From Methylorubrum extorquens (GTDB lineage Bacteria > Pseudomonadota > Alphaproteobacteria > Rhizobiales > Beijerinckiaceae): a stretch of DNA of 32,000 nt. Of this stretch, positions 6,972 to 17,548 are shown one piece after another. The DNA lies in NCBI GenBank assembly GCA_900234795.1, contig LT962688.1:2670001-2702000 (forward strand), in the 5' to 3' direction. Positions within the stretch are counted from its first letter, which is position 1. Each line of letters begins with the position of its first letter. The notes below the pieces were generated by a model, which was not told the DNA's origin, searched no databases, and saw nothing but the letters and a program-made list of their open reading frames with translations. The translations under genes and the position numbers were made by a program.

Positions 6972-7208
6972 ATGAGACACGCCGCCCTCGCCCTGACGGT
7001 CTGGTTCGCCGGACTTCATGCGGCCCTCGCCCAGGCGACCAACCCTGCCCCGCCGATTCCGGAATCGGGGCCGTCCGGCTCCAGTTCGGGCGCGGCGACG
7101 TCCGCGGCCACCGATTTCAACTGGGTCTGGGTGAGCGTGCTGATCGCGCTCGCGGTGCTTGCCCTGTGGATGTTCGCCCGCAAGCGTCAGTCCGGCCCGC
7201 CGCGGTAG
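6972..7208 (+). CDS. Small (78 aa) exported, C-terminally membrane-anchored hypothetical protein
   Basis: ATG 6972 has TGGAG 10 nt upstream. High GC3 throughout. N-terminal signal MRHAALALTVWFAGLHAALA/QA, a Ser/Gly/Pro-rich linker, and a C-terminal TM helix WVWVSVLIALAVLALWMF followed by ARKRQ. Confidence 0.6.
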   Translation: MRHAALALTVWFAGLHAALAQATNPAPPIPESGPSGSSSGAATSAATDFNWVWVSVLIALAVLALWMFARKRQSGPPR

Positions 7209-7245
7209 AAACGGGACCGACGCGACCTTCCTATCCAACCCTCGT

Positions 7246-7353
7246 CCTCACCCTGAGGTGGCGGCGCGAAGCGTCGCCCTCGAAGGGTCCTCCAGTAAGC
7301 ATACGGGAACGAGAGGATCCTTCGAGGCCGCTGCGCGGCACTTCAGGATGAGG
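7246..7353. repeat. REP-like nested imperfect palindrome between convergent genes
   Basis: The left arm is 7246-7292 (cctcaccctgaggtg...cctcgaagggtcctc). The right arm is 7313-7353, whose reverse complement reads cctcatcctgaagtg...cctcgaaggatcctc. Each arm carries its own internal GC hairpin (ggcggcgc-gaa-gcgtcgcc and ccgc-gca-gcgg). This resembles the abundant intergenic palindromic repeats of Methylobacterium-type genomes. It could also act as a bidirectional terminator. Confidence 0.5.
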
Positions 7354-7377
7354 CAGTGCACGGGAGGTGGACGGTCG

Positions 7378-8205
7378 TCAGCCCTTCTTCGCGCTCGGGA
7401 AGAACAGCGGCTCGCCGTTGATCTTGTAATCGGCGATTGCCCGCTGTCCCTCGGGCGAGACCAGCCAATCAATGAAGGCTTGGCCCTCCTTCACCTTCAC
7501 GGTCGGGTGCTTCTCCGGGTTCACCAGCATCACGCCGTAGGGGTTGAACAGGCGCTTGTCGCCCTCGACGAGGATGGTCAGGTCGCCCCGGTTCTTGAAT
7601 GAGAGCCACGTGCCGCGATCGGCGAGGATGTAGGCGCCGAGCGACGAGGCGGTGTTGAGCGCCGGACCCATCCCCTGTCCGACGTCGCGATACCAGTCGC
7701 CGCGGACCGCCGGGAGATCGACGCCGGCCTCCTTCCAGCTCCGCAGCTCGGCGCTGTGGGTGCCGGAGCGATCGCCACGCGAGACGAAGGGCGCTTGTCC
7801 CGCCGCGATGGCCTTGAAGGCGTCGTCCACCCCCTTGCCGCGTATGCCGGCCGGGTCGGCCTTCGGGCCGATCAGCACGAAGTCGTTGTACATCACGTCC
7901 TGCCGCCCCTTGGCGAACCCCTCGGCGACGAACTTGTCCTCGGCCGGGCGGTCGTGGACGAGCACGACGTCGGCGTCGCCCCGGCGCGCCGCGTCGAGGG
8001 CCTGGCCGGTGCCGAGCGCCACCACCTTCACCTCGATCCCGCTCTTCTGCTTGAACAGCGGCAGGATGTGCTTGAACAGGCCCGATTGCTCGGTCGAGGT
8101 CGTGGAGGCGACGACGATCGAGGCGGGCTCGGCCCGCAGCGGCGAGGCCGTGCCGAGAGCAGCCAGGAGCGAGAGGGTCAGGAAGCTGCGGCGAAGGCGG
8201 TCCAA
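7378..8205 (-). CDS. tupA: Tungstate/molybdate ABC transporter substrate-binding protein, TupA family
   Basis: Signal peptide MDRLRRSFLTLSLLAALGTASPLRA. TupA-type blocks VASTTSTEQSGLF, VKVVALGTGQALDAARRGDADVVLVHDRPAEDKFVAEGF, MYNDFVLIGP and SRGDRSGTH. It overlaps tupC by 28 nt. Confidence 0.85.
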   Translation of the reverse strand: MDRLRRSFLTLSLLAALGTASPLRAEPASIVVASTTSTEQSGLFKHILPLFKQKSGIEVKVVALGTGQALDAARRGDADVVLVHDRPAEDKFVAEGFAKGRQDVMYNDFVLIGPKADPAGIRGKGVDDAFKAIAAGQAPFVSRGDRSGTHSAELRSWKEAGVDLPAVRGDWYRDVGQGMGPALNTASSLGAYILADRGTWLSFKNRGDLTILVEGDKRLFNPYGVMLVNPEKHPTVKVKEGQAFIDWLVSPEGQRAIADYKINGEPLFFPSAKKG

Positions 8206-8894
8206 GGCAGTTCTCCGGTGAGGTAGGCCCGCGCTTCGGGTGTGCGGGGTGAGAAGAGGACGGATCGGGTCGGGCCCCGCTCCACGGCGCGGCCGGCGGC
8301 GAGCACCACGGTCTCGTCGGCGAGCCGGGCGACCTGCCCGAGATTGTGCGAGACGAGGAGCACGGTGGTGCCGGTCTGCGCCATCTCGGTGATCAGGCTC
8401 TCGACGGTCTCGGTCGCGGCTGGATCGAGGCTCGCGGTCGGCTCATCGAGGAGCAGGAGGTCGGGCTGCATCGCCCAGGCGCGGGCGAGCGCGAGGCGCT
8501 GCTGCTCGCCGCCCGAGAAGCGCGTCGCCGCGTCGTTGGCCCGCTCCGACAGGCCGACGCGGGCGAGCGCCGCCGCGATCCGCTCGGCGCGCTCCCGGCG
8601 GGACAGCTTCAGCGAGACCAGTCCGAGGGCGACGTTGGCGGAAGCACTCGCCCGCACCAGGGCGGGGCGCTGGAACACGAAGGCGCGGCGGCCGGGCGTG
8701 AGGCGCACCGTGCCGCTATCCGGCCGCAACAGGCCGTCGATCACACGCAGGGTCACGCTCTTGCCAGCCCCGTTGGGGCCGATCAGGGCGGTGATGCCGT
8801 GCGCGGCGACGTCGAGGTCGAGACGGTCGAGGATCACCCGTCCGCCGAGCGCCAGGCTGACGCCGTCGAGATGGATGGCGGGCGCAGCGCTCAT
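8178..8894 (-). CDS. tupC: ABC transporter ATP-binding protein (tungstate-type system)
   Basis: Walker A GPNGAGKS, signature FSGGEQQR and Walker B LLLLDEP. Its start overlaps the tupB stop by 4 nt (ATGA). Confidence 0.85.
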   Translation of the reverse strand: MSAAPAIHLDGVSLALGGRVILDRLDLDVAAHGITALIGPNGAGKSVTLRVIDGLLRPDSGTVRLTPGRRAFVFQRPALVRASASANVALGLVSLKLSRRERAERIAAALARVGLSERANDAATRFSGGEQQRLALARAWAMQPDLLLLDEPTASLDPAATETVESLITEMAQTGTTVLLVSHNLGQVARLADETVVLAAGRAVERGPTRSVLFSPRTPEARAYLTGELPWTAFAAAS

Positions 8895-9586
8895 CCGTAG
8901 GCCCTCGCGACATGGCTGCGCAGGAGCGCGGCGGCGGCATTCACCGCCAGGACGAGGCTCATCAGCACGAGGCCGAGCGCCAAGGCGAGGCTGAGGTCGC
9001 CCTTCTGCGTCTCCAGCGAGATCGCCGTCGTCATGGTGCGGGTATGCCCGTCGATATTGCCGCCGACGACGAGCACGGCGCCGATTTCCGAGATCGCCCG
9101 GCCGAAAGCGGCCAGTGCTGCCGTGACCAGCGAGAAGCGCGCATCGTAGATCAGCACCCCCGCTCGCTGCGGTGCGGAGAGGTGAAGGGAGCGGAGTTGT
9201 TCTCCCAGGTGGGCCTCAGCGTCGGCGATGACTTGTCGCGTCAGCGCCGCGACGAGCGGCGTCGCCAGCACCGCCTGCGCTGCCACCATCGCAGCTGGGG
9301 TGAAGAGCAGGCCGAACGCTCCGAAGGGACCCGAGCGGGACAGGGCGAGATAGAGGATCAGCCCGACGATCACCGGCGGCAGGCCCATGAACGTGTTGAG
9401 AAGCCCGACCACGGCGCCGCGCCCCGGAAATCGCGCCACCGCAATCAGCGCTCCGAGCGGAATGCCGAGCACAAGCCCGATTCCCACCGCGGTGACGCTG
9501 ACGCGCAGGGACAGCCGCGCGATCGCCAGGACATCCCGGTCGAGCGTCCACAGGCGCGAGAACGTCTCCTGAAGGGTTTGGCTCAA
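8891..9586 (-). CDS. tupB: ABC transporter permease (tungstate-type system)
   Basis: BPD-transport permease with about five TM helices. It includes the SLE..K..L loop motif expected for this family, TMTTAISLETQKGDLSLALALG. There is no in-frame ATG near the conserved N-terminus, so TTG at 9584-9586 (LSQTLQETFSRLW...) was chosen, giving 231 aa. The Arg/Pro-rich upstream ORF extension to 9808 was rejected. Confidence 0.8.
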   Translation of the reverse strand: MSQTLQETFSRLWTLDRDVLAIARLSLRVSVTAVGIGLVLGIPLGALIAVARFPGRGAVVGLLNTFMGLPPVIVGLILYLALSRSGPFGAFGLLFTPAAMVAAQAVLATPLVAALTRQVIADAEAHLGEQLRSLHLSAPQRAGVLIYDARFSLVTAALAAFGRAISEIGAVLVVGGNIDGHTRTMTTAISLETQKGDLSLALALGLVLMSLVLAVNAAAALLRSHVARAYG

Positions 9587-9610
9587 GGGGCTCGGCTCGA
9601 AGAAATTATC

Positions 9611-9645
9611 GCATCCGCACCGGGGGCGCACCTGAGGTGCATCCG
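9611..9645. promoter_or_regulatory. Candidate operator in the tupB / regulator divergent intergenic region
   Basis: Read directly: the direct repeat gcatccg occurs at 9611-9617 and 9639-9645. The pair flanks and overlaps a perfect palindrome, gcacc-tga-ggtgc (9628-9640). An AT-rich patch (gaagaaattatc) lies just upstream. The function is not established. Confidence 0.2.
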
Positions 9646-9711
9646 GGGCTGCGCGGCGCAAGCCGGGATGATACGCCAGATGACGCAAGATCAATAGGAA
9701 AGGCCTTGCAT

Positions 9712-10749
9712 ATGGCTGTCGAGGACGGGCGGGCCGTGGCTTCGGTCGCTTCCGGGTGGGACGGGCTCCGCGTACGCCTGCATGTCGAGGGCCGCTGCGA
9801 GGGTGCATCCGACTTCCCGCTGCGCGGTGCGCACCAGCTTCTCGAAGCGCTCGGCCGGACCGGCTCGCTCCAGGGGGCGGCCGAGGTGCTCTCGATTTCC
9901 TACCGTTCGGCCTGGGGGCAGCTCGACGCGCTGGAACAGGCCCTCGGCCAGCCCGTCGTGGTGAAAACCAAGGGGCACGGCAGCAGCCTCACGCCTCTCG
10001 GGGTGGCGCTGCTGACCTTGCTTCAAGCGTCGCAGACGCGCCTCGCCCCGGCCCTCGCAGCGGAGGAGATGGCGCTGACGGACGGCTTGCAGCGACTTCT
10101 GGAGCCGTCCGATGCGCGTATCCGTCTCGCCGCGAGCCACGATCCTCTGCTGCTGGAGGCGATCGAGGCGCAGCGCGAGATCGACCTGATGGTCGCCGGC
10201 AGCCTCGACGCCCTGGCGCGGCTGCATGACGAGTCCGTCGATGCCGCGGGCTTCCATTACGGCTCGGACGGCCCGCCACCAGCACCCTTCGGCGCCGTGT
10301 TCGACCGTCGCGACCTCGTCGTCATCCCCCTGTTCCGCCGGGAACAGGGCCTGATGCGGGCGGCCGGCAACCCGCTCGATTTGGGAAGTGTCGCCGACAT
10401 CGCCGCGCGGCGGGCGCGCTTCGTCAACCGGCAACGGGGTGCCGGCACCCGGATCTGGTTCGAACGGCTCTGCGCCGAGGCGGGCATCGACCTCGCGCGC
10501 ATCGTCGGCCATCAGACCGAGGAATTCACGCATCAGGCGGTGGCGGCCCTAATCGCCACCGGCGCGGCCGATGTCGGCATGGGCACCCGCGTGGTCGCCG
10601 AGCGCTTCGCCCTGGATTTCCAGCCCGTGGGTTGGGAGACGTATTTCCTCGCGATCCGCGCGAGGATCGATACGGAACGGCTCGGGCCGCTCCGCGAGGA
10701 TCTCTGCAGCCGAGCCGGACGGACACCCGGCTACGCGCCGCCCCTGTGA
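9712..10749 (+). CDS. ModE-type HTH regulator fused to a PBP-like (oxyanion-binding type) domain; TunR-like
   Basis: SD GGAAAGG sits 8-10 nt before ATG 9712. The N-terminal HTH LLEALGRTGSLQGAAEVLSISYRSAWGQLDALEQALGQPVV...SSLTPLG matches the ModE N-domain pattern. The C-terminal domain shares blocks with the C-terminus of the MoeA fusion at 12594-14570 (ASHD..L, GSLDAL..L....VDAAGFH, VNRQRGAGTR, H.AVAA.IA.GAADVG). Confidence 0.75.
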   Translation: MAVEDGRAVASVASGWDGLRVRLHVEGRCEGASDFPLRGAHQLLEALGRTGSLQGAAEVLSISYRSAWGQLDALEQALGQPVVVKTKGHGSSLTPLGVALLTLLQASQTRLAPALAAEEMALTDGLQRLLEPSDARIRLAASHDPLLLEAIEAQREIDLMVAGSLDALARLHDESVDAAGFHYGSDGPPPAPFGAVFDRRDLVVIPLFRREQGLMRAAGNPLDLGSVADIAARRARFVNRQRGAGTRIWFERLCAEAGIDLARIVGHQTEEFTHQAVAALIATGAADVGMGTRVVAERFALDFQPVGWETYFLAIRARIDTERLGPLREDLCSRAGRTPGYAPPL

Positions 10750-10806
10750 TGTTGCGTGCTCGCGATCTGGGGCTCAGCCTCGCCGATCAGGTCGAAAGGC
10801 GAGCCC

Positions 10807-12057
10807 TCACCACAGCAAGACGTGCGGATAATACGCCAGCGAATCGCCGGGACTCACGCCGGTCGCGTCGTCGGGCAACTCCACGAGGCCGTCGCTCTCG
10901 GTAAGCGAGGTCAGCACGCCCGCTCCGTCGCGCGGGAATTTTTGTGCTTCCAGAGCGCCCTCGCCACTGCGGACGAGACTGACGCGGACGAATTCGCGGC
11001 GGCCCGCCTTCTTACGGTAGCTGAAGCCCGCCCGCACCGGCCAGGACAGCGGCGGCTCGTAGCGTGCGCCGCCGAGCCGGGCGAGCAGCGGCCGCACCAC
11101 GAAGAGCAGCGTGATGTAGACTGCCACCGGATTGCCCGGCAGCCCGACGAAGGGCGTCCCGGCGACCAGTCCCACCGCAACCGGACGGCCGGGCTTGATC
11201 GCCAACCGCCAGAGCATCAGCCGGCCCTGGGCATCGACGGCAGTCTTCACATGGTCCTCCTCGCCGGTCGAGACGCCGCCGGAGGTGAGGATCAGGTCGT
11301 GGTCCCGCGCCGCCTCGGCGAGGCGGGCCGGCAGGGTGACGGGATCGTCGCGCAGGATTCCGAGGTCGTCCACCGCGACGCCGAGCCGGGTCAGCAGGGT
11401 CACGAGCAGCACGCGGTTGGAATCGTGGATCGCGCCGGGGCGAAGGGGCGCGCCGGGCTCGGTCAGCTCGTCGCCGGTCGAGAACACGGCGACCCGCAAC
11501 CGGCGGCGCACGGCAATCTGCGCATGGCCGGTCGCGGCGGCCAGCGCCAGATCCTGCGGGCGCAGGCGCCGCCCCGCGGGGATCGCGAGCCCGCCCGCCG
11601 CCAGATCCTCGCCGGCGGGGCGAGCGTTGGCGCCGGGCTTCAGCCCCGACGGCAGGACGACCCGGTCGCCCTCGCGGCGCACATCCTCCTGCATGAACAC
11701 GGTGTCAGCGCCGGGCGGCATCGGCGCGCCGGTGAAGATGCGGATCGCGGTGCCCAAGGGCAGCTCTGCGGCTGCCGCGCCGGCCGCGAGACGACCGCTG
11801 ACCGGCAGGACGGTCTCGGTCCCTGCCTCGAGGTCGGCGAAGCGCACGGCGTAGCCATCGACCGCGGCATTGGCGAAGGGCGGCAGGTCGTGACGCGCGA
11901 AGACGTCCTCGGCGGCGATCCGCCCGTCGGCGAGGCCGAGCGGTATGGTCTCCGTGCCAGCGACCACGGGGAAGCGCTCGGCGATCATCGCCACCGCGTT
12001 CTCGATCCGCATCGGCTTGCCCCCGAAGGCGAAGCAATCGTCGGTGAGCTGTGCCAT
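10807..12057 (-). CDS. moeA: Molybdopterin molybdotransferase MoeA (canonical length, 416 aa)
   Basis: MoeA N-domain DLPPFANAAVDGYAV, RIFTGAPMPPGADTVFMQEDV. MoCF-binding domain VAVFSTGDEL..PG....G.I.DSN and LILTSGGVSTGEEDH. MoeA C-domain LW.LAIKPGRP. Confidence 0.9.
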   Translation of the reverse strand: MAQLTDDCFAFGGKPMRIENAVAMIAERFPVVAGTETIPLGLADGRIAAEDVFARHDLPPFANAAVDGYAVRFADLEAGTETVLPVSGRLAAGAAAAELPLGTAIRIFTGAPMPPGADTVFMQEDVRREGDRVVLPSGLKPGANARPAGEDLAAGGLAIPAGRRLRPQDLALAAATGHAQIAVRRRLRVAVFSTGDELTEPGAPLRPGAIHDSNRVLLVTLLTRLGVAVDDLGILRDDPVTLPARLAEAARDHDLILTSGGVSTGEEDHVKTAVDAQGRLMLWRLAIKPGRPVAVGLVAGTPFVGLPGNPVAVYITLLFVVRPLLARLGGARYEPPLSWPVRAGFSYRKKAGRREFVRVSLVRSGEGALEAQKFPRDGAGVLTSLTESDGLVELPDDATGVSPGDSLAYYPHVLLW

Positions 12058-12060
12058 GGC

Positions 12061-12597
12061 TCAGGGTCTTTCCAGCCGGGCGAGTACGGTTTCAAGAGCC
12101 TCGGCGCGCTCGGTCACGAGATCGGCGATGGCCTCGATGTCGTCGAGCCCGACCACCGGCACCGCCGCCTGCGGGAAGGGCACGTCGCTGGCGATGCCGA
12201 CGATGCGCGGGTCGTCTCCGTGCAGGGGCGGACGGCCGTTGGCCGCGCGGAACACTTCGAGCTTGGGATGCGCCTCGCGCTTGAAGCCCTCGACCAAGGC
12301 GAGACCGGTCGGCGTCAGCCGGCGCAGCAATTCGGGCAGGGTCGCCTCCGCGCCCTCTCCGACCTCGCGGATCTGCGCCCATCGCCGGGCGGAGGATACG
12401 ATTACTTCGCTCGCCCCGGCCTGCCGGTGGACGAACGAATCCTTGCCCGGCTGATCGATGTCGAAAGCGTGGTGGGCGTGCTTGAGGGTCGCGACCCGCA
12501 TTCCGCGGGCGACGAGCACGGGGATGAGGCGGGCGAGCAGCGTGGTCTTGCCCGCTCCGCTCCAACCGGCGAGGCCGATGACGCGCAGGTCGTTCAC
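12061..12597 (-). CDS. mobB: Molybdopterin-guanine dinucleotide biosynthesis adapter protein MobB
   Basis: GTG start at 12595-12597 overlaps the upstream gene's TGA (GTGA). P-loop GLAGWSGAGKTTLL. MobB blocks ATLKHAHHAFDIDQPGKDS and LVEGFK. The Arg-rich upstream ORF extension to 12795 was rejected. Confidence 0.85.
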   Translation of the reverse strand: MNDLRVIGLAGWSGAGKTTLLARLIPVLVARGMRVATLKHAHHAFDIDQPGKDSFVHRQAGASEVIVSSARRWAQIREVGEGAEATLPELLRRLTPTGLALVEGFKREAHPKLEVFRAANGRPPLHGDDPRIVGIASDVPFPQAAVPVVGLDDIEAIADLVTERAEALETVLARLERP

Positions 12598-14570
12598 GAT
12601 TCGCCTGCGCCGGGTTCGAACCCTAGTTCGTTTAGGGCCGCATCCGCCGCGCGTGTGCCGAGCAGCGCCAGGAAGGCGGCGAGCGCGGGCTTCTCGCGAT
12701 CCGCATCGCGGTAGGCGAAGTCGTAATGCTCCTGCGCCAGCGGCAGGAAGCCGAGGCCGTAGGCCGTTGCGACGCTCGCGATCGCCACGCCCCAATCGGC
12801 CCGGCCCTGCGCCACCGCCGCCGCGACGGCGTTGTGCGAGCGCGGCTGGTTCCAGAAGCCGGCCGGGCGGGCCGGCCCGATCAGGCCATCGACGAGGAGG
12901 CGGGTGCCGGAGCCGGCGTTACGGTTGACCATCACCGCGTCGGGGTCGGCCAGCGCCGCGTTCACCGCATCGGCAGCGCTGCGGCCCTCGAAACGGGCAT
13001 CGTTCTTACGGAACACCACGCCCTGGAGCCGACGCCAGCCGAGGGCGAGTTTCATGCCCGCTTCGAGGAAAGGCGCGTTGTAGCGGCCGGTCTCGGGGTC
13101 GAGCAGGTGCATGGCGGCCAGGTCGCATTCGCCCCGGCGCAGGGCCGCGAGCCCCCCGGCCGAGCCGACCCATACGGTGCGGGCGCGAAAGCCTTGCTCG
13201 GCCAGCAGTCCGACCACCCGGTCGAGCCCGATGCAGTGGCTGCCGATGATGGTGAGGTCCGGCGGCCGAACGCCCGCCCCGAGGCGCACCACCGAGACCG
13301 TCTCGCCCGCCTCGACGCCCGAGCGCGCGGCCGGCACGGCAAAGAAGCCGTCGGCCTGCGAGAAGGCGGTGACGGAGCCGGAGCCTTTCGGCAGCGGCAG
13401 GGCGACCAAGCCATCAGCCGCCTGAGCGAGCGAGGCCATCACGAATTCGGTGCGGCCGAGTTCGGACGTCAGCCGCTGCGGCAGGCGCGCCGACACCGCC
13501 TCCTCTTCCCGCGGCGGCAGTCCGGCAAGCGCGCGCACCAGCGGCACCACGAATTCGTGGAAGGTGAACATCGCCGAGGTCGGGAAGCCGGGCAGCACCA
13601 CCACCGCCTTGCCTTCGGCGACGGCGAGGCAGAGCGGCTTGCCGGGTTTGAGCGCGACGCCGTGGACGAGGATGCCGGGCGGGCCCAGCCGCGACAGGAT
13701 GCGGTGCGAGACATCGCCCGCGCCCTTCGAGGTGCCGCCGGAGAGTACGACGAGGTCGCTCCGGGTCAGCGCATCGCGCAGGGCACCATCGAGCGCCGCT
13801 TCGTCGTCGCGGACGATGCCGAGCGGCACGGGCTCGCCGCCGTTCTCGGCGACCGAGGCCGCGACGATGGCGCCGTTCGAATCAAAGATGGCGCCCGGTC
13901 GCAGTTCACCGCCCGGCGCGACCAGCTCGTCGCCCGTCGAGAGTACGGCGACGCGGGGGCGGCGCACCACCACGATCTCGGCGAGCCCGCAGGCGGCGAG
14001 CATGCCGATCTCGCGGGCGGTCACCACTGCCCCCTTGCGTAGGACGGTTTCGCCGGACGCCATGTCGGCGCCGGCATAGCCGACGAATTGCCCCGGCCGG
14101 ACCGGACCCGTCACGTCGATGGCGAGGGCGTCTTCGAAGAACTCGGTCTGCTCGACCATCACCACGGCGTCGGCCCCGCGCGGGATCATGCCGCCGGTGG
14201 CGATCGGCGTCGCGGTGCCGGTGGCGACCGAACCCGTCGGGGCGACGCCGCAGGCCAGGATCTCGCGGTTGAGAGCGAGCCGGCGGGGCCGCGCGGCGTT
14301 GGCGCCCTCGGTGTCGGCGGCGCGCAGCGCAAAGCCGTCCACCAAGGCGCGGTCGAAGGGGGGCACGTCGATCGGCGAGGCAATATCGCCGGCGAGCACC
14401 CGTCCCAGCGCCTGGGCCAGCGGAACGGTCTCCGGTGGAAGCGCCGCGTGGGGAAGTGCCGCGCGGAAGGCCGCATGCGCGTCCTCGCGGCTCATCACCG
14501 TCAGGAACTGCTCCTGCCGGGCGGCCGCGGCGAGGCGCTGGGTAAAATCCGTCTCGCGATCCGCGCTCAT
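12594..14570 (-). CDS. MoeA fused to a C-terminal PBP-like domain (658 aa)
   Basis: The N-terminal ~410 aa are MoeA-like (DVPPFDRALVDGFAL, IATGGMIPRGADAVVMVE, VAVLSTGDEL, VVLSGGTSKGAGD, ALKPGKP). The C-terminal ~240 aa are PBP-like (IIGSHCIGLD, VGSAGGLAALRRGECDLAAMHLLD, VNRNAGSGTR, HNAVAAAVAQGRADWG). There are 4-nt overlaps at both ends. Confidence 0.85.
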   Translation of the reverse strand: MSADRETDFTQRLAAAARQEQFLTVMSREDAHAAFRAALPHAALPPETVPLAQALGRVLAGDIASPIDVPPFDRALVDGFALRAADTEGANAARPRRLALNREILACGVAPTGSVATGTATPIATGGMIPRGADAVVMVEQTEFFEDALAIDVTGPVRPGQFVGYAGADMASGETVLRKGAVVTAREIGMLAACGLAEIVVVRRPRVAVLSTGDELVAPGGELRPGAIFDSNGAIVAASVAENGGEPVPLGIVRDDEAALDGALRDALTRSDLVVLSGGTSKGAGDVSHRILSRLGPPGILVHGVALKPGKPLCLAVAEGKAVVVLPGFPTSAMFTFHEFVVPLVRALAGLPPREEEAVSARLPQRLTSELGRTEFVMASLAQAADGLVALPLPKGSGSVTAFSQADGFFAVPAARSGVEAGETVSVVRLGAGVRPPDLTIIGSHCIGLDRVVGLLAEQGFRARTVWVGSAGGLAALRRGECDLAAMHLLDPETGRYNAPFLEAGMKLALGWRRLQGVVFRKNDARFEGRSAADAVNAALADPDAVMVNRNAGSGTRLLVDGLIGPARPAGFWNQPRSHNAVAAAVAQGRADWGVAIASVATAYGLGFLPLAQEHYDFAYRDADREKPALAAFLALLGTRAADAALNELGFEPGAGES

Positions 14571-15652
14571 AGCGGCACCACCTCGACCACGCTGCCGACC
14601 GGGTAGCCCTCCCGCTCCGGCGGCACCAGCACGAATCCGTCCGCTTCGATCAACCGGTGCAGGGCGAGATCGGCTCCGCCGAGGGGGTCGATGTCCGTCC
14701 CCTGGACGCGAACGAAGACGATTTCGGCGAGCCCGACGATCGAGGTGATCTTGCGCGAGATTTGCCCCATCCGCGCCGCCGGTTCGACGGCAGCGGTCAG
14801 CGCGGCGATCAGCGGCCGGCCGAGCGCCAGGACGGCCGCGAGCGCCGCATCGGGCCGGCCGGGCAGGAGCAGGACCGGGCGGTCCCCGGCTTCGCCGACC
14901 CCCGCCGTCTCGCCGGGCCGCAGGGCGAGGCCGTGAGCGACCACACGTCCGGCTTGCGCCAGCGCTTCGGCGCTGCGGTCGCTGCGCCCGAACCCGGTGC
15001 CGCCGAGGACGAACACCGCATCCGCTCCGTCGGCCGCGATGGCGTGGGCGATCCGTTCGGGGTCATCCGGCACCGCCACCGTCTCGGCGAGGCCGCCCGA
15101 CCGCGCGATCACGGCGCCGAGCGTCGGCGACAGGACGTCCGGCGCCCCCGTCACCACGAGGCGAATCCGGGCTTCGCGGATCGCGACTTCGACAAACCCC
15201 GCGGCCGCGAGGCCGAGAAGGTGGCGCGGCTCGATCCGCTCGCCCGCCGTCAGGAGAGCGTCGCCTTCGGAAAAATCCTCGGCCGCGGCGCGGGTGCTCT
15301 CGCCCGGACCGACTTCCGCCACGGCACTGCGGTGCTCCAACCCCTCGGCGGCCAGGATCGCGTCGGTGCCGGGCGGCAGGCGCTCGCCGGCTTCGACCCA
15401 GGCGGGGGCGCGTGGCAGCATCACCGGCGCGTAGGGTGAGGCACCGCCGATCTGCGCGGCTTCCACCGCGAAGCCGTCGCGCAGGGCGGTGAGCCCGGCC
15501 GGGATGTCATGGGGAACCGTGAGCGATGTCGCGGCGATGTGCCCGGCCGCTCGAACCAGCGGCACCGATCGCGGCGCGACCGGTTTCGCGCAACGCAGCA
15601 GCAGGGCGAGCGCGTCGGCGAGCGGTGTCAGGGCGGCGGAGGCTGCGCGCAT
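14567..15652 (-). CDS. Short MoeA-like molybdopterin-binding protein (361 aa), first gene of the operon
   Basis: MoeA-like blocks are recognisable but divergent: LTALRDGFAV, ERLPPGTDAILAAE, RLVVTGAPDV, VFVLGGTGFGRSD, GLALRPGE. It overlaps the next gene by 4 nt (ATGA). Confidence 0.7.
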   Translation of the reverse strand: MRAASAALTPLADALALLLRCAKPVAPRSVPLVRAAGHIAATSLTVPHDIPAGLTALRDGFAVEAAQIGGASPYAPVMLPRAPAWVEAGERLPPGTDAILAAEGLEHRSAVAEVGPGESTRAAAEDFSEGDALLTAGERIEPRHLLGLAAAGFVEVAIREARIRLVVTGAPDVLSPTLGAVIARSGGLAETVAVPDDPERIAHAIAADGADAVFVLGGTGFGRSDRSAEALAQAGRVVAHGLALRPGETAGVGEAGDRPVLLLPGRPDAALAAVLALGRPLIAALTAAVEPAARMGQISRKITSIVGLAEIVFVRVQGTDIDPLGGADLALHRLIEADGFVLVPPEREGYPVGSVVEVVPL

Positions 15653-15870
15653 CGTTCAAGCGTCCGCGCGCGCCGGCAGTGCGGCGGGCTGAGCGGCAAG
15701 AATGCGTGAGGCTCCGTCCTGTCTCATCACCGCGAGCGATGCGCCATCGCCGGGCGCGGATCAAGGTTCGGCATCTCGCCACTCCGGCGCCTGAGACACA
15801 AACCCTCACCTTCGGTGGGCGGACGGCGTCCCGACCGGTCGCGTATGGTCCGCCGGGGAAACGGAGTTGG

Positions 15871-17193
15871 ATGACGATGCCGATGCGGGCGACGCGGATT
15901 CTCGGTCTGATCGCGGCCCTCCTGCTCGCATTGCCCGCGGGGGCGCAGATGCGCGGCCATGGCGGGCCGGTTCGTGCGCTCGCCGTGACGGGCGACGGCC
16001 GCCTTGCGGTCTCCGGCGGGTTCGATCAGGCGGCGATCGTCTGGGGTCTCGAAACCGGCGCGGCTTTGAGCGTCCTGCGCTTCCATGACGGCGCGGTGAA
16101 CGCCGTGGCGGCCCTTCCCGACGAGCGCTTCGCCAGCGCCTCGGAGGATGGGCGCATCGCCCTGTGGCGATTGGGACAGGCCGAGCCGGACTGCGTACTC
16201 GCGGGACATGCCGGCCCCGTTGCCGGGCTCGCCGTCTCGCCCGACGGGACCATGCTGGCGTCCGCCGCCTGGGACGGTACCGCGCGGATCTGGCCGCTGG
16301 CGGGTGGGCCGGCGCGGATTCTCGAAGGACACAAGGGCAACGTCAACGCGGTCGCCTTCCTGCCCGACGGGCGCCTCGTCACGGCCGGCGCCGATGCGAG
16401 CGTGCGGATCTGGACGCCGCAGGGGGAAACCGCCGTGACCGCGACGCTGCCGAGCGCGCTCAGCGCGTTGGCCGTCATCACGGACGGCGAGATCGCAGCG
16501 GCGGGGGCGGATGCCACGGTGCGGTTCCTGGCGCCCGACGGGCAGGTGCGGTCAGAGGTCGAACTCGGCCCTGCCCCGGTGATCGCGCTGGCGCCCGCGC
16601 CCGACGGCACCCGGATCGCCGCCGCGAGCGCGGGCGGCACCGTCGCGATGATCGAGCGGGCGAGCGGAAAGATCCTGTTCACGCTGGTCGGGCCGGGCCT
16701 GCCGGTCTGGTCGGTGGCGTGGCGGCCGGATGGGAGCGAACTCGTCACCGGCGGCGGCGACCGCCTCGTGCGGCGCTGGAACGCGGCGACCGGCGAGCCG
16801 ATCGGCCCCCTCGCCATGCCCCGGCCCGCGGACGCGCTCGCCGCGTTTCACGGCGAGCGCGGCGCGGAGGTGTTCCGCGCCTGCGTCGCCTGCCACACCT
16901 TGGCGCCCGACGACGCGCCCCGCGCCGGACCGACGCTCGCCGGCCTCTTCGGCCGGCGCATCGCGACGGTTTCGGGCTACCGCTACTCGGAGGCGCTGAA
17001 GGGCATGGACATCGTCTGGACGCCGGAGACGGTTGCCCGCCTGTTCGAAGTCGGGCCGGCACGCTTCACCCCCGGCACCCGGATGCCGGAGCAGACCATC
17101 AACAGCGCCGAGGATCGCGACGCGCTGATGCGCTTCCTCGCCAAGGCAACGGAGAGACAGCCGACGGGGACGCCGCTGACCGGGCCGAACTGA
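15871..17193 (+). CDS. Periplasmic seven-blade WD40 beta-propeller fused to a C-terminal c-type cytochrome domain
   Basis: GGAG sits 7 nt before ATG 15871. Signal peptide MTMPMRATRILGLIAALLLALPAGA/Q. There are seven WD-like repeats (for example HGGPVRALAVTGDGRLAVSGGFDQAAIVW and HKGNVNAVAFLPDGRLVTAGADASVRIW). The heme motif is CVACH with a downstream Met (TRMPEQ), typical of class I cytochrome c. The upstream ORF extension to 15526 was rejected. Confidence 0.85.
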   Translation: MTMPMRATRILGLIAALLLALPAGAQMRGHGGPVRALAVTGDGRLAVSGGFDQAAIVWGLETGAALSVLRFHDGAVNAVAALPDERFASASEDGRIALWRLGQAEPDCVLAGHAGPVAGLAVSPDGTMLASAAWDGTARIWPLAGGPARILEGHKGNVNAVAFLPDGRLVTAGADASVRIWTPQGETAVTATLPSALSALAVITDGEIAAAGADATVRFLAPDGQVRSEVELGPAPVIALAPAPDGTRIAAASAGGTVAMIERASGKILFTLVGPGLPVWSVAWRPDGSELVTGGGDRLVRRWNAATGEPIGPLAMPRPADALAAFHGERGAEVFRACVACHTLAPDDAPRAGPTLAGLFGRRIATVSGYRYSEALKGMDIVWTPETVARLFEVGPARFTPGTRMPEQTINSAEDRDALMRFLAKATERQPTGTPLTGPN

Positions 17194-17220
17194 GCGGCGC
17201 CCGGTCGGGCCTTCGACGGA

Positions 17221-17394
17221 TCAGCCGTGGCAGCTGCAGCCGGCGTGGTCGCAGCCGGCATGATCGGGATGACCTTCGGCGCACTCGTCGCAGCAGAAGG
17301 CCTTCTCGTCGCGTTTCACCGCCTTGGTCACCGAGACCACGCACACGCAGTCCGGGCAGGCACACTTCACCATATCGACATCGACGCTCGCCAT
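17221..17394 (-). CDS. Bacterial metallothionein, SmtA/BmtA family (57 aa)
   Basis: GAAGGA sits 8 nt before the ATG at 17392-17394. The product is MASVDVDMVKCACPDCVCVVSVTKAVKRDEKAFCCDECAEGHPDHAGCDHAGCSCHG, with 10 Cys and 4 His. It aligns by eye with Synechococcus SmtA (VKCACEPCLC...YCSEACADGH...GCGHTGCNCHG), with every Cys and His of that SmtA segment matched. An alternative ATG 9 nt upstream (17403) has no usable SD spacing. Confidence 0.85.
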   Translation of the reverse strand: MASVDVDMVKCACPDCVCVVSVTKAVKRDEKAFCCDECAEGHPDHAGCDHAGCSCHG

Positions 17395-17548
17395 CGGGGT
17401 CATCCTTCTCGAGACGATTCTTTCCGCGCCCCGAAGCAGCGTGGCGCACAATCATCTTCCTGCGGGCGGATGCGGAGCGCAATCCATGCGCGCACGGGAT
17501 CGGCGGATGTGGCGCCAATGTGTCAGGTGTCGCGGGCGGGTGCCCCGA

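Follow-up and report, generated by a model that had tools for sequence, protein, structure and literature searches.

A probable tungsten uptake and cofactor-assembly island in Methylorubrum extorquens and its paired MoeA paralogues

The locus described here holds the genes of a tungstate transporter beside three MoeA genes. It lies in a 32,000-nucleotide stretch, referred to as the window, which covers positions 2670001-2702000 of the single-contig 5.7-Mb genome (70% G+C) deposited as Methylorubrum extorquens (LT962688.1); named relatives likewise point to the Methylobacterium/Methylorubrum group. Genes and domains were called with Pfam and NCBIfam profiles and gene junctions were read off the sequence. 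The island comprises tupBCA, a divergently transcribed regulator gene, and an operon encoding a short MoeA, a MoeA fused to a domain resembling periplasmic binding proteins (PBP), MobB, and a further MoeA. An earlier note, made from the letters alone, had read it as a dedicated module for loading the tungsten bis-molybdopterin guanine dinucleotide cofactor, linked to tungstate uptake and with labour divided among the three MoeA forms. We consider it very probable that, in the Methylobacterium group, the island is the module that acquires tungsten and assembles the tungsten cofactor. The core of that interpretation is right but already published, and two of the three MoeA genes are still without a function.

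Tungsten formate dehydrogenases (FDHs) are sought-after catalysts for CO2 reduction, and cofactor loading limits their production. As MoeA1, MobB, and TupBCA are already used as a core for FDH production, in this respect the locus contributes no more than one further orthologue. What interest is left attaches to the regulator and to the pair formed by the short MoeA and the MoeA-PBP fusion, which is strictly maintained from archaea to methylotrophs and combines one degenerate site with complementary residues.

Most of the functional evidence comes from M. extorquens AM1, in which the consecutive genes META1p3047-3050 encode MoeA5, MoeA3, MobB, and MoeA1 (Phan & Kim, J Biol Chem 2026, PMC13197769). 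Judged by sequence and gene order the window operon is the orthologue of this set, and the AM1 names are used for it below. Deletion of moeA1 or mobB in AM1 abolishes the activity and tungsten content of FDH1. Deletion of moeA3 or moeA5 leaves 41 and 40 U/mg of FDH1, respectively, against 50 U/mg in the wild type, so that ~80% of FDH1 activity and tungsten content is kept. The molybdenum FDHs depend instead on MoeA2, whose gene lies on a second replicon, and can do without MoeA1 and MobB. Tungsten wins even at a 30-fold excess of molybdate, and the substitutions R291K and A312S in MoeA1 relax this preference (all PMC13197769). When the pathway was reconstituted in E. coli, moeA1 and mobB were the minimal set for FDH1 activity (Nat Commun 2026, PMC13714276).

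Because the island is orthologous to an experimentally characterised tungsten module, the main inference of the earlier note is settled and was already known. A dedicated loading module tied to tungstate uptake in an aerobic methylotroph is borne out by the AM1 knock-outs, complementation, and metal analysis (PMC13197769) and by the E. coli reconstitution (PMC13714276), and the moeA1-mobB-tupBCA cluster itself was pointed out by Phan & Kim (PMC13197769). The proposed sharing of labour fared less well. As FDH1 of AM1 needs only MoeA1 and MobB, a three-way division in FDH1 loading is unsupported as stated, and the remark that this division had not been resolved experimentally is out of date, since the AM1 deletions have been published (PMC13197769).

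The window MoeA1 (10807-12057, minus strand; 416 aa, 294 bits against E. coli MoeA) fits the description of a tungsten-selective MoeA1, which is marked by a canonical scaffold with R291 in place of E. coli K282 and A312 in place of E. coli S303, and by mobB as a neighbour. Residues K288, P289, G290, R291, A312, and R353 all fall at the numbering quoted for AM1 MoeA1, and both R291 and A312 are present in every orthologue collected (56/56). Directly upstream, across a 3-nt gap at 12058-12060, lies mobB (12061-12597, minus strand; 178 aa with a GTG start). Its product matches PF03205 at 156.8 bits and TIGR00176 at 145.8 bits against a cut-off of 76.2, and has the Walker A motif GAGKTT. The likeness to AM1 thus extends over gene order, the four proteins, the neighbouring tupBCA, the MoeA1 residue numbering, and the presence of an FDH1-type enzyme in the genome. 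The short MoeA is 27% identical to E. coli MoeA in our alignment, and 26.7% is tabulated for AM1 MoeA5. The two strains are nevertheless taken as different species, the window short MoeA sharing ~70% identity with its counterparts in the Methylorubrum species sampled. The regulator, the PBP domain, and the degenerate state of MoeA5 are not discussed in either AM1 paper (PMC13197769, PMC13714276).

In the pathway that we propose, TupBCA would import tungstate, and the regulator, most likely by binding the oxyanion, would control the divergent tupBCA promoter. MoeA1 with MobB would insert tungsten into adenylylated molybdopterin, MobA would add the guanine nucleotides, and FdhD would sulfurate the cofactor and deliver it to the NAD-linked tungsten enzyme FDH1, as shown in each case for the AM1 orthologues. 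The genes for MobA, FdhD, and FDH1 are encoded elsewhere in the genome, FDH1 as an fdh1A-like (989 aa) and fdh1B-like (572 aa) pair at genome positions 635843-640583. MoeA3 and a non-autonomous partner, MoeA5, would form an archaeal-type pair that is accessory for FDH1 when tungsten is plentiful. The pair may provide a route for scavenging or channelling scarce metal, or may serve another enzyme.

The dispersal of the remaining pathway agrees with the earlier observation that the window holds no moaA-E, mogA, or mobA gene and no molybdenum or tungsten enzyme gene, which stood up in genome-wide family searches and in Pfam scans of the remaining open reading frames (ORFs) of the window. Nine PF00384 genes, the MobA candidates, and a single FdhD gene all lie outside it. 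The same is true of moaC, which was recognised by eye in the translation of an ORF. It adjoins a fourth MoeA gene at 531 kb of the genome, which brings the MoeA genes to four. The genome-wide family search found no gene for a tungsten-type aldehyde oxidoreductase (AOR).

The transporter genes occupy the minus strand. The product of tupA (7378-8205) is a periplasmic tungstate-binding protein of 275 aa with a signal peptide, which matches PF12849 (PBP_like_2) at 150 bits and the solved Geobacter TupA structure 3lr1 at 256 bits. Its STTST aligns to the TTTST motif of 3lr1, and VHDR, SRGD, and SGT are conserved. Equivalents of the TupA binding-site residues are kept, namely the Thr/Ser motif, H59, R118 (the Arg of SRGD), and T124 in D. 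alaskensis numbering. Beside it lie tupC (8178-8894), encoding the ABC ATPase (PF00005, 95.9 bits), and tupB (8891-9586), encoding the ABC permease (NF038017, 233 bits), the latter two joined by an ATGA overlap. For tupB the 305-aa ORF from 9808, adopted previously, is too long. Translation most likely begins at the TTG at 9586, for a protein of 231 aa, as the TupB profile match begins at residue 78 of the long ORF and tblastn matches in relatives begin at residue 1 of the 231-aa form. With this one start corrected, the gene set and coordinates of the earlier note were all recovered by the Pfam and NCBIfam profiles, and its operon overlaps and gap proved exact when read off the sequence. The AM1 tupBCA was one of three transporter systems tested in E. 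coli, where higher FDH1 activity went with transporter expression, the systems being taken as a group (PMC13714276).

Several points weigh against a tungsten module as the function of the island. Its functional basis comes from AM1 orthologues and not from this strain, and the role proposed for MoeA3 and MoeA5 is without direct support, as the AM1 deletions show almost no phenotype. TupA and TupB miss their NCBIfam equivalog cut-offs (228 against 400 bits and 168 against 320 bits, respectively), which would make them members of a divergent subfamily, and a preference of Tup for tungsten over molybdenum is suggested by analogy with relatives. No operator was found when intergenic regions were compared across ~30 loci, in which the conserved elements are only promoter-like. 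Finally, the genome has no orthologue of AM1 MoeA2, the insertase of the molybdenum branch. With four MoeA genes here against five in AM1, the split between molybdenum and tungsten may therefore be organised differently in this strain.

The two MoeA genes without a function belong to a type of pair that has been described before. Megrian et al. (Commun Biol 2025, PMC11733289) traced an ancestral duplication of MoeA in archaea that left contiguous paralogues, one stand-alone and one PBP-fused, with a few anaerobic bacterial recipients and with TupA co-occurring with the fusion in 86%. Both the contiguous pair and its link to TupA are thus already published. These authors propose that one paralogue serves tungsten and the other molybdenum, report a confident homodimer model of an archaeal fusion, and mention neither alphaproteobacteria nor heterodimers (PMC11733289). 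In our tree MoeA3 groups with the archaeal fusions and P. horikoshii MoeA (support 99/95), and E. coli MoeA is joined by MoeA1 and the fourth MoeA. MoeA5 makes up a clade on a long branch near the archaeal upstream partners, with weak support (93/79 and 91/63), and the branching inside this clade agrees with that inside the MoeA3 clade. MoeA5 is probably the derived partner of an archaeal-type contiguous pair, a placement that is new here. The resemblance lies in a stand-alone MoeA directly upstream of a MoeA-PBP_like fusion, in the co-occurrence with TupA, and in the placement of MoeA3 in the archaeal clade. The pair in the window differs in its partner, which is down to 361 aa with several active-site residues gone, and in that tungsten insertion falls to a third, canonical MoeA.

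The association of the two genes is stricter than that of the island as a whole. A synteny survey covered 70 loci found through a MoeA5 motif. In 69/70 of these loci moeA5 lies directly upstream of moeA3. MoeA1 follows downstream on the same strand in 53/64 loci with room for it and MobB in 49/64, and within 10 kb tupAB was found in 31/56 and the regulator in 22/56. Distant genomes, uncultured and labelled Acetobacteraceae, Stellaceae, Hyphomicrobiales, and Gammaproteobacteria, have the pair alone, often with fdh1A-like, FdhD-like, and MobA genes beside it. An independent sample of 400 Pseudomonadota genomes yielded only eight others with the fusion above the family cut-off, all belonging to the same taxonomic order as the window's genome and with a MoeA5-like gene immediately upstream in 8/8. 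Of the genomes from its own genus, 3/6 were found to have the fusion. A stand-alone MoeA also directly precedes the fusion in each of three archaeal and two Firmicutes loci, the Firmicutes loci (L105, L106) having tupA-tupB-tupC followed by MoeA and MoeA-PBP. In L106 the pair is followed by moaA, moaC, and two genes for MOSC-domain proteins. Two loci depart from most of those in Methylobacteriaceae, a metagenome-assembled genome of Methylorubrum populi (L016) and M. zatmanii (L017), in which no MobB-MoeA1 is found within 3.5-8 kb after the pair.

MoeA5 (14567-15652, minus strand; 361 aa) matches all three MoeA Pfam domains above their cut-offs. Its AlphaFold2 (AF2) model has a predicted local distance difference test score (pLDDT) of 93.7, an intact four-domain fold, and template modelling (TM) scores of 0.74-0.80 to P. 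horikoshii MoeA (1uz5) and Cnx1E, so the possibility raised earlier that the short protein lacks a molybdopterin-binding fold does not apply. The canonical active-site set was checked in 62 orthologues against E. coli MoeA (T100, E188, D228, K279, K282, S303, R345, S371, a set that includes Cnx1E K294, K297, S328, R369, and S400). Despite its MoeA fold, MoeA5 departs from this set. It has Ala at T100, has lost E188 in a deletion, is variable at D228, which is often lost, and has Glu at K282 in 61/62. The position of R345, equivalent to the molybdate-binding R369 of Cnx1E, is Leu, Met, or Val in 57/62 and never Arg, R350 is replaced by Phe or Tyr, and S371 by Asp or Glu. D59, D259, and G281 are kept. 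As the K282 equivalent is Leu in functional vertebrate gephyrins, the change at this position alone is not decisive, and more weight attaches to the missing equivalents of R369 and S400. MoeA5 is thus probably not an autonomous insertase, and what is new here is a protein modelled with a full MoeA fold around an apparently degenerate active site.

Its partner MoeA3 (12594-14570, minus strand; 658 aa) scores 796 bits against NF011068, with a cut-off of 534, and keeps all catalytic residues, including the molybdenum-type K311 and S332, but R137, E141, and R350 are absent. A sequence search of its PBP domain against the PDB gave no match. The AF2 model of this domain (pLDDT 92) has PstS, ModA, TupA, and LysR effector domains as its nearest folds, and the fold search returned only generic class-II oxyanion and LysR-type neighbours. 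Fold and motifs would fit an oxyanion ligand. MoeA3 has the look of a working insertase to which an oxyanion-binding domain is fused.

A precedent for two MoeAs acting together is found in D. vulgaris Hildenborough, in which a stand-alone MoeA and a PBP-fused MoeA, encoded by moeA (DVU2990) and moeA-2 (DVU0951), are both required for the tungsten Aor, with a cofitness of 0.85 (PMC10102598). One of the two is fused to PF12727 as in the window, and the paralogues act on the same tungsten cofactor without being redundant. Two differences stand out. The D. vulgaris locus numbers are distant, so the genes are presumably not adjacent, and the fusion is needed there but dispensable for the tungsten FDH of AM1.

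The residues of the two chains suggest how such a pair could work. Window-type pairs were compared with three archaeal and two Firmicutes pairs, a small sample outside alphaproteobacteria. In each, an alpha chain lacks R137, has Ser, Ala, or Asp at 141, keeps Arg or Lys at 345, and lacks R350. The beta chain has R137 or R138 together with E141, lacks R345, and keeps R350. Canonical homodimeric MoeAs hold all four residues (137, 141, 345, 350) in one chain. Archaea and alphaproteobacteria have the PBP domain on the alpha chain, and Firmicutes have it on the beta chain. By these residues MoeA5 would be a strongly derived beta chain. That members of a pair carry complementary residue sets is new here and suggests a heterodimer.

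The strongest alternative to a tungsten module centred on MoeA1 builds on this pattern. It holds that MoeA5 and MoeA3 are an obligate heterodimeric insertase, the bacterial form of the archaeal-type pair, with a composite site fed by the PBP domain, forming a second high-affinity route for tungsten (or molybdenum) and not an accessory to MoeA1. The adjacency of the genes in 69/70 loci and 8/8 sampled genomes, the overlap of the moeA5 stop and moeA3 start codons (ATGA, 14567-14570), which leaves them translationally coupled, and the matching clade topologies all speak for it. So does the distribution of residues, as MoeA3 keeps R345 without R137, E141, and R350 and MoeA5 keeps R137 and E141 without R345, a split repeated in the three archaeal and two Firmicutes pairs, and the MoeA active site is known to span both monomers (PMC9458074). 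Taken with the dual MoeA requirement of D. vulgaris (PMC10102598), the strict adjacency and coupling make an obligate heterodimer plausible. It is opposed by the AM1 deletions, which leave ~80% of FDH1 activity and tungsten, by the dependence of molybdenum FDH activity in AM1 on MoeA2 and not on the pair (both PMC13197769), and by the confident homodimer model of an archaeal fusion (PMC11733289). Moreover, that R137 and E141 act in trans is only inferred, and few pairs were compared outside alphaproteobacteria. We regard this alternative as a tentative one. The broader proposal, that contiguous MoeA pairs of archaea, Firmicutes, and alphaproteobacteria in general are obligate alpha/beta heterodimers whose PBP domain feeds tungstate or molybdate to a single composite site, is likewise possible but doubtful at present.

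If it holds, heterodimer formation would explain why many organisms keep two non-redundant MoeAs, and would supersede the view that tungsten is handled by one paralogue and molybdenum by the other. The old question of the two MoeAs becomes a direct test of interaction and activity, for which AM1 offers a tractable aerobe in which both single deletions exist.

A second alternative, that the island is a non-selective molybdate and tungstate module mainly for molybdenum enzymes and only incidentally linked to tungsten, is unlikely. In its favour, the MoeA3 pocket has the molybdenum-type K311 and S332, TupA proteins also bind molybdate at nanomolar affinity, and the genome lacks a MoeA2 orthologue. 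The state of the molybdate importer genes points the same way, as modA (genome positions 753974-754628) and modB (1791286-1791907), along with a PBP_like gene (1611114-1611648), all outside the window, each match their family in two adjacent frames. These splits may be either assembly frameshifts or real pseudogenes; should those in modA and modB be real, the cell would have no intact molybdate importer and would take up oxyanions mainly through Tup. However, they may be assembly errors, and TupA retains the residues responsible for picomolar tungstate binding. In AM1, MoeA1 and MobB are required for FDH1 but dispensable for the molybdenum FDHs, and tungsten is preferred at a 30-fold molybdate excess (PMC13197769). 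The conservation of R291 and A312 throughout the MoeA1 orthologues also counts against this alternative.

The least likely alternative, which we regard as very improbable, takes MoeA5 for a remnant that is decaying or has no function, or for a MoeA repurposed for a role outside cofactor synthesis like actinobacterial Glp, and although it has lost the T100, E188, R345, and S371 equivalents, evolves 2-3 times faster than its neighbours, has little effect when deleted in AM1, and counts C. glutamicum Glp (8bve) among its structural matches, its dN/dS of 0.31-0.39 against 0.11-0.21 for neighbouring genes indicates purifying selection, if more relaxed, the family has its own near-invariant motif (ALRPGETA) and an intact modelled fold, the gene is kept beside moeA3 in Methylobacteriaceae, Hansschlegelia, and uncultured genomes labelled Acetobacteraceae, Stellaceae, and Gammaproteobacteria, and the Glp model NF045515 scores only 110 bits against a cut-off of 475. 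On selection, motif, and fold the pseudogene reading was rejected.

The regulator gene (9712-10749, plus strand) encodes 345 aa with an HTH_1 domain (39.7 bits) and a PBP_like domain (PF12727, 161 bits). Its product is most likely, to go by these domains, a cytoplasmic oxyanion-sensing protein in which a ModE/LysR-type winged helix-turn-helix (wHTH) is joined to the PBP_like sensor. The sensor and the PBP domain of MoeA3 have ligand-site motifs in common (S-H, G-S, VNR..G.GTR, (S/T)H.AVA, and AD.G). A Pfam scan found no Mop/TOBE and no integrase-like domain in the regulator, and the protein scores 40.7 bits against the ModE-type TIGR00637, below the cut-off, and 18 bits against NF007957, for which the cut-off is 369. 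TunR, the subject of Kazakov 2013, reportedly combines a XerC/XerD-like DNA-binding domain with ModE-type Mop domains. As it lacks Mop/TOBE, the island regulator is neither ModE nor, given the architecture reported for TunR, TunR, and the label TunR-like in the earlier note named the wrong family.

The regulator resembles E. coli ModE in its N-terminal wHTH and would share with ModE and Desulfovibrio TunR a role in oxyanion homeostasis. However, ModE senses metal through two C-terminal Mop/TOBE molybdate-binding domains, and TunR is said to have a Mop sensor and a XerC/XerD-like DNA-binding domain; the island regulator has none of these. Its PF12727 sensor domain brings it closer to the TaoR/TupR family, whose members respond to tungstate. 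TaoR (DVU3193; Rajeev et al., Environ Microbiol 2019) is described in PMC11980592 as a PBP-like sensor with an HTH_17-type DNA-binding domain. On both sides a putatively cytoplasmic PBP-like oxyanion sensor is joined to a DNA-binding domain and associated with tupABC; the difference lies in the latter domain, HTH_17-type in TaoR and a ModE/LysR-type wHTH (HTH_1) in the island. The genome encodes a second regulator with a ModE-type HTH and a PBP_like domain at genome positions 1937441-1938517 (minus strand), outside the window, which is 46% identical to that of the island and has no obvious molybdenum or tungsten gene beside it.

The operator search compared the tupB-regulator and moeA5 upstream regions. 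The divergent control region between tupB and the regulator (9587-9711) holds a promoter-like element, ATTGAT-N16-TATCAT, at 9666-9694 (minus strand), which is conserved in ~20 orthologous loci and unique in the genome. Across loci the conserved elements read TTGATC-N15-TAKCAT on the tupB side and TTGATC-N15-CGCATC on the moeA5 side. The latter, at 15738-15764 (minus strand) and containing GATGGCGCATCG, is kept in loci from Methylobacterium, Methylorubrum, and Hansschlegelia, has a single copy in the genome, and is probably the operon promoter or a control site. As both elements are single-copy, no regulon could be drawn. A gcatccg direct repeat with a gcacc-tga-ggtgc palindrome (9611-9645) was considered as an operator and rejected. 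It lies in a ~45-nt insertion in the tupB leader that is absent from relatives, and since the closest of these (L001-L014) lack it, it is unlikely to be a conserved operator. An Rfam search of 7000-17500 found neither a molybdenum cofactor riboswitch nor any other credible RNA.

Downstream in the operon the moeA3/mobB junction is a GTGA overlap at 12594-12597. Two further genes recur on the other side of moeA5. More than 20 relatives (e.g. L011, L013, L014, L016, L019-L022, L025, L026, L028) have a gene for an FdoG-like FDH alpha subunit, exported by the twin-arginine translocation (Tat) pathway, ~8.5-10 kb upstream of moeA5. The copy in this genome, with which it shares 85-97% identity, lies at 5.6 Mb, 2.9 Mb from the island. 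In the window itself, moeA5 is divergent from a gene at 15871-17193 (plus strand) for a periplasmic WD40 beta-propeller fused to cytochrome c, and this gene is also the divergent neighbour of moeA5, within 1.5 kb, in 37/62 related loci with room for it.

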